Assembly (NCBI GenBank): GCA_964016885.1
Contig: OZ024747.1
Coordinates: 92,566,001 to 92,630,000, forward strand
DNA from: Eledone cirrhosa
Lineage: Eukaryota
Length of the DNA: 64,000 nt
Reading direction: 5' to 3'
Below are positions 8,153 to 63,339 of this stretch, piece after piece. The stretch's first letter is position 1. Every line of letters starts with the position of its first letter. The notes under the pieces are model-generated. The model saw only the letters and a program-made list of their open reading frames with translations, was not told where the DNA came from and searched no databases. A program made the translations under genes and the position numbers.

Positions 8153-8385
8153 ATAATATATAAGATCAAAAGATGGTTAAAAGAGTTCCATGTATTTTAT
8201 TATGCGCATTTCAAAATGTTGATTCAAAACTGCACTATCCACAAGTGTTTTTAACCTTCATATCATGTCTTCCTATTTTATCTGATGAAAACACAAATAT
8301 TATTGCATGATGATATTTGTTTTTGAAATGCGCATAATAAAATACATGGAACTCTTTTAACCATCTTTTGATATTATATATTATG
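8153..8385. mobile_element. Fold-back non-autonomous element, family D (Penelope-like pLTR type)
   Basis: 8153-8215 is the reverse complement of ~8321-8385; (TA)n on both sides; homologs at 9281-9480 and 23711-23953. Confidence 0.75.
8274..8344 (+). ncRNA. Type-I hammerhead ribozyme, family D
   Basis: Helix I TATTTTAT/ATAAAATA; CTGATGA 8282-8288; helix II ACAAATATTAT/ATGATATTTGT-type stem; GAAA; palindromic helix III ATGCGCAT; AUA site at 8336. Confidence 0.88.
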
Positions 8386-8878
8386 TATATATATATATAT
8401 ATATATATATATATATATATATATATATATATATATATATATACATTTGTACATAGATATACATATATACATATATACATATATACATACATATATACAT
8501 ATCTAGCTGTGGAAACAGTATACATATATACACACACACACCATATATATATATATATATATATTTGTACATATACAAGTATATTTGTATAGCTAGATAG
8601 GCAGATAGATATACATATATACATATATACATATGCACACATAAATATATAAACGTGTGTGTGTGTGTGTGTGTGTGTGTGTGTGTGTGTGTGTGTGTGT
8701 GTGTGTGTGTGTGTGTGGATGTGTGTTTGTGTGTGTGTGTGTGACTGTGTGTGATAGAATCTCCCGTCAAGAATAACATAGACGAGTGTGTAGTTCGAAT
8801 CAATTCAATGACGGATTCATTGAATTTAACTTGTAAAGTCGCTGACAAACGTACACTTAAGGTGTGAAGTGAAAACAG

Positions 8879-9070
8879 GGCGGTGGATTGGCAGTATCGG
8901 TAGAGGGTCGGACGCCATGCTTTACATCAAAGAGTTACGGCCCTTTACGGTCTGAGTTCAAATCCCGCCAAGGTTAAGTTTGCCTTTCATCCTTACAGGG
9001 TCGATAAAATAAAGTACCAGTAATGTATTGGGTAATTGCTGGCCTTGTGCCAAAAAGTAGAAACAATTAT
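8879..9070 (+). mobile_element. tRNA-derived SINE (abundant family, octopus OR/OK-like)
   Basis: GGCGGTGGATTGGCAG head, GAGTTCAAATCCC B box, GTCGATAAAATAAAGTACCAG core; more than 10 copies or fragments in the window. Confidence 0.85.
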
Positions 9071-9373
9071 GATCCAGTGTAACAAGACTGCCAGCTTGTC
9101 TTTGTTTATTTGTTACTCTCCCTTGTACACTAGAGCCAGTAGTATCAACCTTAAACAACCGAAACAACGTTTCTCTAGCGGTCAACTGATAATATGGGAC
9201 TACTGCTGTCTATATTCGTTCATTTTCTTGTCTTCGCCCATATTTTTTATTATATGTGTGTGCGTATATATATATATATATAATGTAGGAGGTGAGTTTT
9301 ATTGTAGTACAATAAAGCAATGCAGATATCGGATAAAACACAAGTGTTTTTTAACCTTCATATCATGTCTTCC

Positions 9374-9444
9374 TGTTTTATCTGATGAAAACACAAATAT
9401 TATCGCATGATGATATTTGTTTTTGAAATGCACATAATAAAATA
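9374..9444 (+). ncRNA. Type-I hammerhead ribozyme, family D copy
   Basis: TGTTTTAT-CTGATGA-helix II-GAAA-T GCAC ATA-ATAAAATA. Confidence 0.8.
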
Positions 9445-9702
9445 CATGGAACTCTTTTAACCATCTTTTGTTCTTATATATTATATATATATATGTGTGT
9501 GTGTGTGTGTGTGTGTGTGTGTGTGTGTGTGTGTGTGTGTGTGTGTGTGTGTGTGTGTGTGTGTGTATGCGTGTGTATGTATAAATCTACAGATACCTGT
9601 GTGTCTGTATTTGATACAATCTTATAGTTACTTCATGTATGTGTTTATACACACACACACACACATGCATACATACATACATACATACATACACACATAC
9701 AT

Positions 9703-60304: not shown

Positions 60305-60353
60305 CATGTCTGATGACTCTGCCAACACACAGGCAAAACTCCAGAGTAACATG
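60305..60353 (+). ncRNA. Hammerhead motif, family K, G12>A (probably inactive)
   Basis: CATGT-CTGATGA-CTCTG..CAGGC-AAAAC TC CA GA GTA-ACATG; relatives at 31541-31590 (-) and 42293-42372. Confidence 0.6.
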
Positions 60354-60433
60354 ACTCAGATTGACATTAGTTGAAATTATGTATTTATATCTATCTTGAA
60401 GTTTAATGTCGGCTCCGTACCGATTAGATAATA

Positions 60434-61087
60434 GTGTTCTATATTTTTGAGACGAGGAATTATTTACATTATATATATATTGGACGGATAGGTGTCCTCA
60501 CCTTGTTTTGTTGTTAACACAACGTTTCGGCTGATGTATTCTCCAGCCTTCATCAGGTGTCCTAGTGATGTTATTATTAACGTTTGTTCAGGTCACTGCC
60601 TAGAATTGTACTCGGAATCTTGAGGTTAGTAGCCCGCTTTTTAACCACTTTTTTTTTCATTTTTTTTCCCGTGATTCTTTTTTTTTTTTTTTTTAAGGGC
60701 TTCTAAACTGATATTTTTCTTTCCTTCCTCAATACCGGTTCCCATATATTACTCATATCTGCACTAGGTCTGCTTAGGAGGTTATTGTGTCCTAGAAAAA
60801 TTATCAGTTTATAAGCCCTAAAAAAAAAAAAAAAGAATCGCGGAGGAAAAAAAAAGGAAAAAAAAAAAAAGTGGTTAAAAAGCGGGCTACTAACCTCAAG
60901 ATTCCGAGTACAATTCTAGGCAGTGACCTGAACAAACGTTAATAATAACATCACTAGGACACCTGGTGACGGCTGGAGAGTACATCAGCCGAAACGCTGT
61001 GTTAACAACAAAACAAGGTGAGGACACCTATCCGTCCAATATATATATAATGTAAATAATTCCTCGTCTCAAAAATATAGAACAGTA
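60434..61087. mobile_element. Large fold-back element (tRNA-like segment + hammerhead on each arm), family L
   Basis: Arms ~60434-60720 and ~60794-61087 are reverse complements around a ~73-bp spacer. Confidence 0.88.
60516..60561 (-). ncRNA. Minimal (helix III-less) hammerhead, family L
   Basis: GACAC-CTGATGA-A GGCTG..CAGCC-GAAAC GTT-GTGTT; palindromic AACGTT; mutated copy at 60958-61003 (+). Confidence 0.83.
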
Positions 61088-62317
61088 TTTCTAACTATCT
61101 ATCTATCTATCTATCTATCTATCTATCTATCTATCTATCTATCTATCTATCTATCTATCTATTTATAAATATATGTATATATGTATGTATATATATATAC
61201 TCTCCTATCTTTACACCTGAGCCAGGAATTGAAAAACTTCAATACTCTCCTATATATATATATATATATATATATATATATATATATATATATATATAGT
61301 AATAATAATAAATATGAAGACTAAAATCCAAAGAGGGCTCGATAAGGATAAATATATATCAAATATATAAGAACCGTAGAGCAAATATTTATTAAAATAA
61401 CAGATTAAAGTTTAAGCAAAGAATCGCTGCTTTCACCCTTCAGAAGATCCCGTTAATGGTGAAAGCAGCGATTCTTTGCTTAAACTTTAATCTGTTATTT
61501 TAATATATATATATATATATATATATATATATATATATATATATATATATATATATATATATATCAGTTCTGTTTACATGCCATCACAAGAGCAAGAATG
61601 AAGGGTTCATTCTACTGACATGGCTATAAAATGAGACCTGTTTGCATAATTGCAGACGAATCGAATGTTATTATTAATATTCGAAAATCTCGGATTACAT
61701 TTATTATATATACTAGCAGAAAAACTACCCTCGGGTGGTTTTCTGCTAGTATGTGTTGTGTGTATATTGATATTATACACAAGTATATATGCATGTAGAT
61801 ATGCTACATCAAATAAAATCGTAATTGACAATATGCACAGAAATTGACCGAAGACTGTGTTACACTCTCTTCTGTAATCAGTAAAGTAATCCATGATATA
61901 AATACAAAAGACGATATTATATATAAACTGCATTAGGAGAAAATTAGTGACAGAAATATATTATGAATATTTATTTAAACGATCGCTAACCGGAAGTGTT
62001 GACATTTGAAAATTTTAACGAAGTGAATCTTTAAAAAAGTAATAAAATATATTTAATGAACAGCCACGAAATTTAGTAGATAAATTATGTAATATTCATT
62101 CAAAACAATTATTTATTCAAAGTAATCCAACTTATTTTACTAAGGGGATAAAAATTATAAACCGTACGCATTCCCGCGCTTCTTACTTTATTATAGTTTA
62201 TATATATATATATATATATAATGGTAAGTACTACAGCCAAAATCCCTAGGGAAACTAAACTGGAAATAGAACTAAACTGGAAATAGAACACACACACATA
62301 TATATATGTATATATAA

Positions 62318-62742
62318 CCTCGTTCTTCCCCCAACTCTCACATTCACATACACACACACACGTACACCTACACACACACACCACCTTCAGCCCTCCCCGC
62401 TCGGACACCCCGCCTCCTTCTCCCCACTCCACCCGCCACCACCCCTACACGCCCCACACCCTTCCACCACTTGTTTATCTTCATGTTTATTTTTATTTTT
62501 ATTATTATTATTATTTTTATTATTTTTTTATATTTATTTTCATCTGTACCCCTTCCACCGCCCCCCCCCCTTCTAAATGTCTCTCCCCCACTCCCCTACA
62601 CACCCTTGGAACCCTCTTCCCACACACTTTTCGCCTGAAGAAGGGCTTATGCTCGAAACGCCCCCCCCTCTCAAGAGCGTGAAACTAATAAACCTTTGTT
62701 CGTACTGCCTCTCTGTTTTGTTCCCGTTCCATTTTTCACTAT
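62318..62742 (+). mobile_element. Family G pLTR-like remnant
   Basis: CTGAAGAAGGGCTTATGCTCGAAACG at 62635, then AATAAA. Confidence 0.7.
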
Positions 62743-63339
62743 ATATATATATATATGCACATACATGCATATATATATATATATATATATATATAAATGA
62801 AAGGTATAGAAAACTTTAATCTGTTATTTTAATATATATATATATATATATATATATATATATATATATATATATATATAAATAACAGATTAAAGTTTAA
62901 GCAAAGAATCGCTGCTTTCACCCTTAACGGGATCTTCTGAAAGCAGCGATTTTTTGCTTAAACTTTAATCTGTTATTTTAATAAATATTTGCTCTACGGT
63001 TCTTATATATTTGATATATATTTATCCTTATCGAGCCCTCTTTGGATTTTAGTCTTCAAATTTATTATTATTACTATATATATATATATATATATATATA
63101 TATATATATATATATATATATCACCTATATAACTCACCCACACACACACCCCAAACATTTTTTTTTATCCACACGCCACCTACACCCACAACACGCTTAA
63201 ACCCCACACACACGTGCTTTCCACCACATATTTACACCCTCAGCCTCCTGATTCCTCTCCCCCCACCCTTCTATCCACACACGGACACTCCGACCCCCCC
63301 CCCCGCACACACACACACCTCTTCCTGAACATGCAACCC

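Follow-up and report, generated by a model that had tools for sequence, protein, structure and literature searches.

Inverted repeat pairs in the window

The DNA analysed here, which we call the window, is a 64,000-nt stretch of the Eledone cirrhosa genome (contig OZ024747.1, positions 92,566,001 to 92,630,000). When the microsatellite-masked window is compared with itself by BLAST, an inverted pair turns up at each of the 18 loci at which an earlier note, made from the letters alone, had named an antisense copy of a ribozyme repeat fused to a sense copy (E values from 1e-16 to 0, 75-98% identity). Additional pairs lie at 9285-9489 (family A, with non-overlapping arms), 15664-16053 (family K, with hammerhead cores at 15782 (-) and 15935 (+)), 37498-37567, 43167-43342, 43391-43522 and 43803-43978. 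Judged by the strand of the hammerhead and by long native copies, the arms are joined 5' to 5' with their 3' ends outward, and the element has the layout putative transcription start (+1), hammerhead, short 3' site, long 3' site and ORF ATG (all discussed below).

Family B pairs are present at 35587..35779 (junction 35640-35646 with a 6-nt templated insert, core at 35652, both arms starting at putative +2, short site at ~35700 and long site at 35779) and 57716..57917 (junction 57776-57783, arms starting at putative +2 and +1), and pairs of a B subfamily at 35005..35206 (junction 35136, at the core) and 38432..38629 (junction ~38490). Family C contributes a pair at 38707..39001 (junction 38826-38838) whose arms both extend past putative +1 (to -62 and -25), a pair of a rare class with two long tails at 51069..51322 (junction 51172-51184), and a nest within one TA tract at 42907..43978, made up of pairs 42907-43098, 43167-43339, 43394-43522 and 43806-43978 with junctions at 42962, 43285, 43454 and 43858; C-like pairs lie at 31283..31469 (junction ~31330) and 58475..58650 (junction ~58600). 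The family E pairs are 49863..50074, 61299..61502 and 62881..63074 (junctions ~50002-50010, 61439 and ~62940). The earlier statement that many junctions fall inside or just 5' of the ribozyme core holds for these three families and fails elsewhere. The family F pair (22189..22622, tail on the left arm) has its junction at ~22448, ~80 nt 5' of cores at 22372 (-) and 22526 (+); the family G pair (24179..24515, junction ~24367) has only a CTGATGA half-core, lacking the canonical downstream GAAA, ~125 nt 3' of the junction; the family D pair (25030..25472, left end approximate, U3-A8 type core) is joined at ~25290-25335; and the family H pair (60424..61094, arms of ~300 nt, no TA flanks) is joined at ~60735-60790, ~200 nt 5' of its cores. 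These four loci, named at 22275, 24215, 25150 and 60434, break ~80-200 nt 5' of the core and not at the ribozyme. At the family I (Neptune-like) pair, 39390..39693 (junction 39599), the long arm begins ~40 nt before the core, at putative +3. The other family A (Hydra-type end) pair, 8148..8389 (junction 8216), has a core at 8282 (+), and both its arms end at the short site; the sense arm starts at putative +3, and of the two arms one has its end near GAAA and the other begins 67 nt 5' of the core.

We extended the analysis to 864 kb (the window plus 800 kb that was not chosen for these families). Same-family neighbours there lie head-to-head with no intervening TA in 56 cases and in tandem in 1, and the tail-to-tail arrangement occurs 0 times without TA and 6 times across a TA run. 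Insertion into (TA)n, also claimed earlier, is borne out by 165 of 180 pairs in which both outer ends adjoin (TA)n. Genome-wide, one family B junction pattern gives 5713/5720 matches, against 2/2 for a reversed control, and head-to-head pairs number thousands beyond the 18 window loci; the 35 pairs of six families in the 800 kb outside the window extrapolate to tens of thousands of hairpins in the genome. The first genome query spanned a junction and so selected one joint, and its 30 central hits were left out of the pair counts; two identical copies on C17 enter the counts twice; the family C tail is too common for a DNA query and was located by pattern search; and families D, G, H and K have too few copies for analysis.

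Raw Illumina reads of three other samples with the same species label contain opposite-strand joints with both 3' ends running into TA, as well as a step in depth at the junction point. The same joints, ends and step in three samples mean that the pairs are not an assembly artefact, and the palindromes are real.

Assignment to Penelope-like elements

Long copies carry ORFs with a reverse transcriptase (RT) and, at the C terminus, a GIY-YIG endonuclease (EN), in agreement with the Penelope-like element (PLE) origin given in the earlier note. RT/GIY-YIG ORFs lie upstream of, and run on from, the repeats in families B, C, E and A, and an EN is present in family I. The Pfam GIY-YIG match is weak (E 0.018, below the cut-off), so the call is made mainly from motifs read by eye; the repeats are 5'-truncated ends of PLEs of Hydra type and, putatively, Neptune-like type. 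PLEs are known from the literature to target (TA)n, to carry a tail on one side and to leave inverted copies truncated at the 5' end; our families have the inverted truncated copy and the tail on one side as well as partial tandems. Penelope of Drosophila virilis likewise has 5' truncation, an adjacent inverted truncated copy, a tail at one end and partial tandems (PMC8557442 fig. 2 and PMC2377424). Compared with section 11 of PMC8557442, families A, B, C and E share with the Hydra clade a C-terminal GIY-YIG without CCHH, the CxCX5C linker, DKT, CxxC and CxH near the EN end, a hammerhead and (TA)n targets. They differ in having RWR or RWI at the RWK position (RWK is present in another element, in L147) and in size, since Hydra elements are generally <3 kb and family B exceeds 5 kb, ~3 kb of it being a 3' UTR rich in simple repeats. 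Family I has, in L259, a C-terminal EN with an upstream CxxC finger and an internal CCHH, and an RT piece in L262; it appears to be Neptune-like, and Nematis is possible. There are 5,000-15,000 exact tail matches per family, and most insertions consist of only a 100-400 nt end, a departure from canonical PLEs, as is the tail of 65-90 nt against 30-40 nt.

Hammerhead cores and helices, read by eye, are present in families A, B, C, D, E, F and I, and self-cleavage is predicted; among the 150 of 322 Rfam matches listed there is no hammerhead, only AT-driven miRNA matches below the gathering score. Like those of non-LTR retrozymes and the minimal hammerheads of PLEs, they are type I and include U3-A8 variants (PMC4209133; bioRxiv 10.64898/2026.07.22.740005), and opposite-strand hammerhead pairs 100-700 bp apart have been noted in Schistosoma (same sources). 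Retrozymes themselves are head-to-tail tandem monomers, whereas the pairs described here join truncated ends of autonomous elements head to head; the 56 to 1 ratio of head-to-head to tandem neighbours and the long copies leading into ORFs led us to reject that identity.

The two arms of a pair

The arms are unequal, one bearing an extra tail of 65-90 nt. One arm ends at the short and the other at the long fixed internal site in 164 of 180 pairs, and the rule holds in 106 of the 112 classifiable pairs that were not picked by the tail query (p 1e-24). The AU-tailed RNA proposed earlier is not supported: run-through copies pass both 3' ends, each followed natively by only 2-5 nt of TAT/AT, into ordinary sequence and then the ORF ATG, 32-93 nt past the long site, so both sites continue natively into the ORF and there is no AU tail.

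In 66 pairs, against 12 with the reverse relation, the short-tail arm extends past the long-tail arm on the 5' side by >10 nt, which means that neither is simply copied from its partner; another layout, in which the arms overlap barely or not at all, is seen in 31 pairs. The two arms of a locus are more alike than arms of different loci (mismatch within/between loci: B 0.011/0.047, C 0.040/0.096, A 0.032/0.065, I 0.028/0.051, F 0.017/0.111), except in family E (0.041 within and 0.043 between), and this likeness could alternatively reflect one donor per cell or later conversion. Where both arms run past +1, 7 of 10 pairs are symmetric within 4 nt, and the 3.5-kb arms of one locus (L143) form a zero-loop palindrome. 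Among 173 junctions, 24 join arm ends within 2 nt with filler of at most 1 nt and 75 have microhomology; filler is copied from the flanks in 19 of the 31 inserts of at least 6 nt.

The 5' ends of the arms

Each of the families B, C, E, A and I has a single point at which 5' ends pile up, lying 6, 3, 42 or 69 nt before the hammerhead core or 43 nt inside it. With this point as +1, the five families together have 210 ends in [-4,+7], 5 in [-16,-5] and 9 in [-28,-17], and on the 3' side 44 in [+8,+19] and 38 in [+20,+31], a distribution with a cliff on its 5' side; family E ends are broadly spread (17 of 116 in the pile-up bin). The +1 was set after the pile-up had been seen in B, C, E and A; family I was found after the start-site idea had been noted, and its pile-up was confirmed on 30 new loci. 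Family F is left out of these counts because its subfamilies diverge from the reference. Genome listings read by eye give 45 of 100 family I arms breaking at -1 to +5, 55 continuing and none breaking at -9 to -2, and ~65 of 100 family C arms breaking, 34 continuing and 1 unclear. Read depth rises ~5- to 10-fold across +1 in the three other samples; for family C this step was taken from the first-mate-plus reads at 1397-1421 alone. Read piles that fall on AATT and look like RAD cut sites (L171:1422, 1363 and probably L145:9760) were discarded.

The point always falls on an Inr-like A, and a TATA box stands at -30 in three of the five families (B, C and I; none at -30 in A and E). Inr-like words are frequent (14-34 per reference). 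A TATA(-32 to -28)+Inr site occurs nowhere but at the pile-up in 632 nt of family B and 752 nt of family C, and in 657 nt of family I at the pile-up and two other places. Family C arms have extra T runs before +1, and G precedes +1 in 8 arms vs A in 3; these additions fit untemplated nucleotides and copying of the cap, which is suggestive only. In the pair set the cap G count (16/38) is confounded by the partner arm. The pile-up point is thus likely to be the start of the element RNA, as far as sequence features can indicate. Transcription of Penelope also starts in its upstream repeat, from a promoter that, unlike the predicted ones of B, C and I, is TATA-less (PMC2377424). The covered parts of PMC8557442 and PMC2377424 report no junction pile-up at a predicted start site, and we found no paper linking PLE inversion junctions to the start site in a search of main texts with limited coverage of subscription papers.

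Origin of the palindromes

The reading we favour, with a probability of about 0.6, is that each palindrome is one PLE insertion into (TA)n, in which two cDNAs primed by both nicked strands run off the 5' end of the RNA and are joined. The endonuclease would nick both target strands; within the mRNA 5' UTR, the short site would serve one strand for priming and the long site its partner; both RTs would copy 60-260 nt to the cap; and the cDNA ends would be joined blunt, by 1-8 nt of microhomology, or with templated filler. Run-off is likely since the copies mostly stop at the family point that is the likely transcription start. The suggestion in the earlier note that both strands of a (TA)n break prime is supported by the 66 pairs with the further-reaching short-tail arm, and it fits the in vitro cleavage and extension of both strands by PAc Poseidon, which uses two internal sites (Frangieh et al. 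2024, PMC11167929). That system also shares AT-rich targets, two internal RT start sites that define the tail, and independence of hammerhead cleavage; it differs in that no distinction in start site between the strands was seen there, whereas the arms differ in 106 of 112 pairs here, and no homology to the target, whereas 2-5 nt of TA-like sequence follow each site here (PMC11167929).

It may further be, with weaker grounds, that both primers use the same RNA molecule and that the long-site RT displaces the short-site cDNA and sometimes switches onto it, which would give the symmetric far-upstream junctions. This one-molecule step failed one test, since the short site holds no excess of long-arm ends (26/77 vs 25.4 expected, families pooled). 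An apparent family C cluster of long-arm ends at that site is partly an alignment artefact. Long copies would arise by priming in a downstream repeat or by a jump. In the twin priming of LINE-1, the second target strand primes internally and produces a 5' inversion; 31 of our pairs have its non-overlapping layout, but the two priming sites, both internal, are fixed here, and as a rule the arms overlap into a palindrome.

A more tentative possibility is that PLEs, primed by both target strands in the mRNA 5' UTR, make strong-stop cDNAs up to the cap like those of retroviruses, which jump to the RNA 3' end to give the pseudo-LTR and long copies and are joined head-to-head when the jump fails. 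Hammerhead cleavage would leave 40-125 nt of terminal redundancy with the RNA 5' end, so that the hammerhead would set the R boundary of the jump.

The idea carried by the earlier note, that both strands prime and RT then stalls on the folded hammerhead, we think unlikely, also in a wider form in which another fixed RNA structure or a bound protein is the roadblock that the junction marks. It accommodates families B and E, where helix I has its 5' edge at +1, and family C, where the point is inside helix II and on the 3' strand of a small predicted apical hairpin. In C, A and I, though, the core start has only 1, 4 and 1 ends within 6 nt, against 93 (C, 43 nt inside the core), 18 (A, 69 nt before it) and 30 (I, 42 nt before it) at the pile-up point. 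In B, A and I this point does not fall at a predicted stem's foot, and in B the RT has already copied the whole ribozyme. Ends away from the core, a 5'-side cliff and no stem foot in B, A and I leave ribozyme stalling unsupported, and a physical end agrees with both the cliff and the untemplated additions. The cleavage site has only 15 of 548 ends within 3 nt, for which reason cleavage was also rejected as the source of the 5' ends; a fixed RT processivity was rejected since arms whose starts differ by 65-90 nt share their stopping point.

It is also improbable that a single cDNA made from the long site folds back, the second strand being cut or joined to (TA)n at the short site. The within-locus likeness, the symmetric far-upstream junctions, the microhomology and the flank-copied filler described above would all suit such an origin, but a copy of the long arm cannot give a short arm that reaches further 5' (66 pairs vs 12) or the 31 pairs whose arms overlap barely or not at all, and a hairpin loop has no place in blunt zero-loop junctions. 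Fold-back may make a subset of the palindromes.

That the fixed point is a splice acceptor or other processing site instead of a transcription start is suggested by the motif at +1 in B, C, E and I, a pyrimidine-rich YAG that also reads as an acceptor, and by the D. virilis intron, mapped with its 3' end at the 5' end of helix I (PMC4209133). We regard this as quite improbable, given that junctions share no upstream-exon sequence, many arms retain the AG, family A has no AG there, and B, C and I have TATA at -30. Still harder to sustain is the proposal of non-autonomous, MITE- or SINE-like master elements, each palindrome being transcribed in full and copied with the junction it inherited: one family B joint does recur in ~20 of 30 junction-selected loci, and one family I joint in at least 8 listed loci, but unselected loci show many different junctions, the recurrent B joint sits on three tail haplotypes, and short copies have no upstream TATA box. 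An artefact of assembly or of the library, with fold-back chimeras forming at TA repeats, can practically be dismissed even though such repeats trouble assemblers (PMC8557442) and our evidence is from short reads, because arms differ by 1-4%, asymmetry is family-specific, fillers are present, and the three other samples have the same ends and steps in raw reads.

Significance

According to Craig et al. 2021 (PMC8557442), the origin of the tandem and inverted PLE structures is undefined and the role of the hammerhead unclear. New here are the different fixed site of each arm, the one-point pile-up of 5' ends, and arms that are alike within a locus, either of which may be the longer and which can form zero-loop palindromes. 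If transcribed, the palindromes could feed double-stranded RNA pathways; judged by folding energies, it is plausible that their transcripts are ADAR or siRNA substrates, as had been suggested earlier. Should the strong-stop reading be true, they would be a fossil map of transcription start sites left by tens of thousands of aborted jumps. The rules seen here, a different fixed priming site for each strand and a shared stop at the predicted start, hold in what appear to be two PLE clades and tie tail, inversion and short copies to one event, and the two-primer model would explain the long-puzzling inverted insertions of PLEs.

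Identity and arrangement of the repeats

The window (G000:C7:92566001-92630000, from a 3.0 Gb genome) is 16% (TA)n. With microsatellites masked, self-matches in inverted orientation are present at all 18 loci where an earlier note had reported fused inverted pairs, and the same comparison finds several further pairs in the window; the 5'-to-5' polarity described for the arms (an arm being one copy of a pair) is confirmed by hammerhead strand and by long native copies. These palindromes represent at least ten families, labelled A–I and K. Over 864 kb selected without regard to these families, neighbouring same-family arms with no TA between them are head-to-head in 56 cases and tail-to-tail in none, and in the genome about 5,700 loci carry a family B junction pattern, versus 2 for a control pattern. 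The palindromes are not assembly artefacts, as RAD raw reads from three other samples contain opposite-strand joints with both 3' ends entering TA, and their depth changes stepwise where the junction lies. Their hairpins have predicted energies of -94 to -475 kcal/mol, which would make the dsRNA effects proposed in the earlier note plausible if they are transcribed. One TA tract (42895-44010) carries four nested family C insertions, which create tail-to-tail hairpins with TA loops.

Exact tail patterns number 15,227 for family C, 10,139 for E, 6,279 for I and 4,921 for A (in A the shared part of the tail, with both arms counted). Upstream of the repeat, long copies have ORFs with a reverse transcriptase (RT) as well as a GIY-YIG domain at the C-terminus, and run-through copies have an ATG 32–93 nt beyond the tail. 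The family I endonuclease is presumably Neptune-like. The CxCX5C linker, DKT, CxxC and CxH are all present in families A, B, C and E and CCHH is absent, in agreement with the description of the Hydra clade of Penelope-like elements (PLEs) in a passage of PMC8557442, where nearly every member is said to insert in (TA)n. Because of these linked ORFs, motifs and run-through copies, the window repeats are PLE ends truncated on their 5' side; that they are stand-alone ribozyme elements is rejected, since long and run-through copies connect them to PLE ORFs. Partial-tandem copies with open ORF starts (L123:1580-3079, L171:1552-3046, L196:1553-3040 and L209, all sampled genomic loci) are likely young active families.

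The palindrome architecture is a PLE feature already known: PMC8557442 lists a 5'-truncated inverted copy, a one-ended tail and (TA)n preference, and calls their origin undefined. In the literature searched we found no description of the positional rules given below (3' sites and 5' pile-up point); the portion consulted of a retrozyme preprint (bioRxiv 10.64898/2026.07.22.740005) deals with tandem monomers, not head-to-head PLE ends.

Two fixed 3' sites

Every family has two fixed 3' ends spaced 65–90 nt apart, the short and long sites, at which short and long arms end. The long/short layout accounts for 164 of the 180 pairs scored in about 1.5 Mb of loci plus random stretches, with 4 long/long, 4 short/short and 8 unclear; in the 119 not picked by tail query, 106 of 112 classifiable pairs are long/short. 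In native context each site has 2–5 nt of TAT/AT-like sequence, after which ordinary sequence resumes, so these are internal priming sites with target microhomology, and the AU-tailed RNA of the earlier note is not borne out. In vitro, the Poseidon-type PLE PAc has both strands cut and extended, and two internal start sites define its tail (PMC11167929, in part).

The 5' ends and a putative transcription start

Junction sequences are diverse among unselected copies and therefore mostly independent events; 5' ends nonetheless concentrate at one point per family, lying at -6 (B), -3 (E), -42 (I), -69 (A) and +43 (C) counted from the hammerhead core's start. Of 548 pooled 5' ends from these five families, 210 fall in the 12-nt pile-up bin, 5 and 9 in the adjoining upstream bins and 44 and 38 in the downstream ones; the remainder are mostly more distant on either side. 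By eye, genome matches break at -1 to +5 in 45/100 family I arms (0/100 at -9 to -2) and at the pile-up point in about 65/100 family C arms, in patterns whose leading W biases toward native matches. RT stalling at the ribozyme is not supported as the cause, families C, A and I having only 1, 4 and 1 ends near the core start.

At the pile-up point each of the five families has an Inr-like A, within CCAGAT for B and I, TTAGT for C and E, and TCATAT for A. B, C and I also carry a TATA-like box, which lies at -29 or -30; family I was analysed only after the start-site idea had been written down. In B and C this combination is the sole TATA-like plus Inr pair of the whole reference. Families A and E have no TATA, the 5'-end distribution of E is broad, and in four families the motif is also splice-acceptor-like. 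Before +1 (this putative start), family C arms show additional T runs, and G outnumbers A there (8 versus 3), suggestive of an RT that has arrived at a capped end. Penelope has the same order of +1, hammerhead, tail and ORF; its transcript begins in the upstream repeat (PMC2377424) and its hammerhead sits at the end of a 5' intron (PMC4209133; both in part). The hammerhead starts at +1 in B and E, and in C +1 falls within helix II, which is why junctions lie at the hammerhead in these three families.

Two probable cDNAs in an insertion

In 66 pairs the short arm extends >10 nt farther in the 5' direction, in 12 the long arm does, and 79 are level; in 31 pairs the long arm begins at or past the short site. 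Simple copying of the long arm cannot yield the 66 further-reaching short arms or the 31 barely or non-overlapping pairs, so two RNA-templated cDNAs are needed, and the proposed priming from both strands stands. Microhomology is present at 75 of the 173 junctions; another 31 are blunt, and the other 67 have filler, which is flank-copied in 19 of the 31 fillers of ≥6 nt. Arms are more similar within than between loci in 5 of 6 families. Far-upstream junctions are symmetric in 7 of 10, and one family B insertion (L143:10-7052) has 3.5-kb arms, 97% identical, with a loop-less joint in the endonuclease coding region. The symmetry of such junctions suggests that a single RNA molecule serves both arms, with strand displacement and switching; this is the weakest step, since long-arm ends show no enrichment at the short site (26/77 versus 25.4 expected).

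Other hammerheads and elements

Most family E copies (e.g. 61430-61480; >10,000 exact tail matches) have a CAGAAGA core (U4 to A), and U3-A8 cores occur in families C, D and I. Family G (24179-24515, 13456, 14095, 24642) has CTGATGA without the canonical downstream GAAA, resembling half-core cases noted for Naiads in part of PMC8557442. A small minimal hammerhead family (12340, 62635, 63656, all +; CTGAAGA/CTGAGGA core, 4-bp helix II) lies 3' of C-rich sequence and outside palindromes in the window. At L145:9744-9822, reads and contigs have joints returning 74–78 nt across the entire family B hammerhead; a retrozyme-like array of tandem copies is probably present elsewhere. By eye, a 684-aa open frame at 9628-11682 (+), combining RT and a Cys/His knuckle with a restriction-like C-terminus, looks from its sequence like an R2/R4-type non-LTR element; 39748-40539 (+) is a Mariner-like transposase fragment, and 26791-27267 and 47941-48471 are RTE-like LINE RT fragments.

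A model for palindrome formation

The PLE endonuclease likely nicks both (TA)n strands, and the two target 3' ends likely act as primers at the short and the long site within the 5' UTR of the mRNA. Both cDNAs would be extended to the cap and then end-joined, giving a palindrome with a one-sided tail; long copies would come from priming at the downstream repeat or from a strong-stop jump. The hammerhead would then be a passenger of the insertion event.
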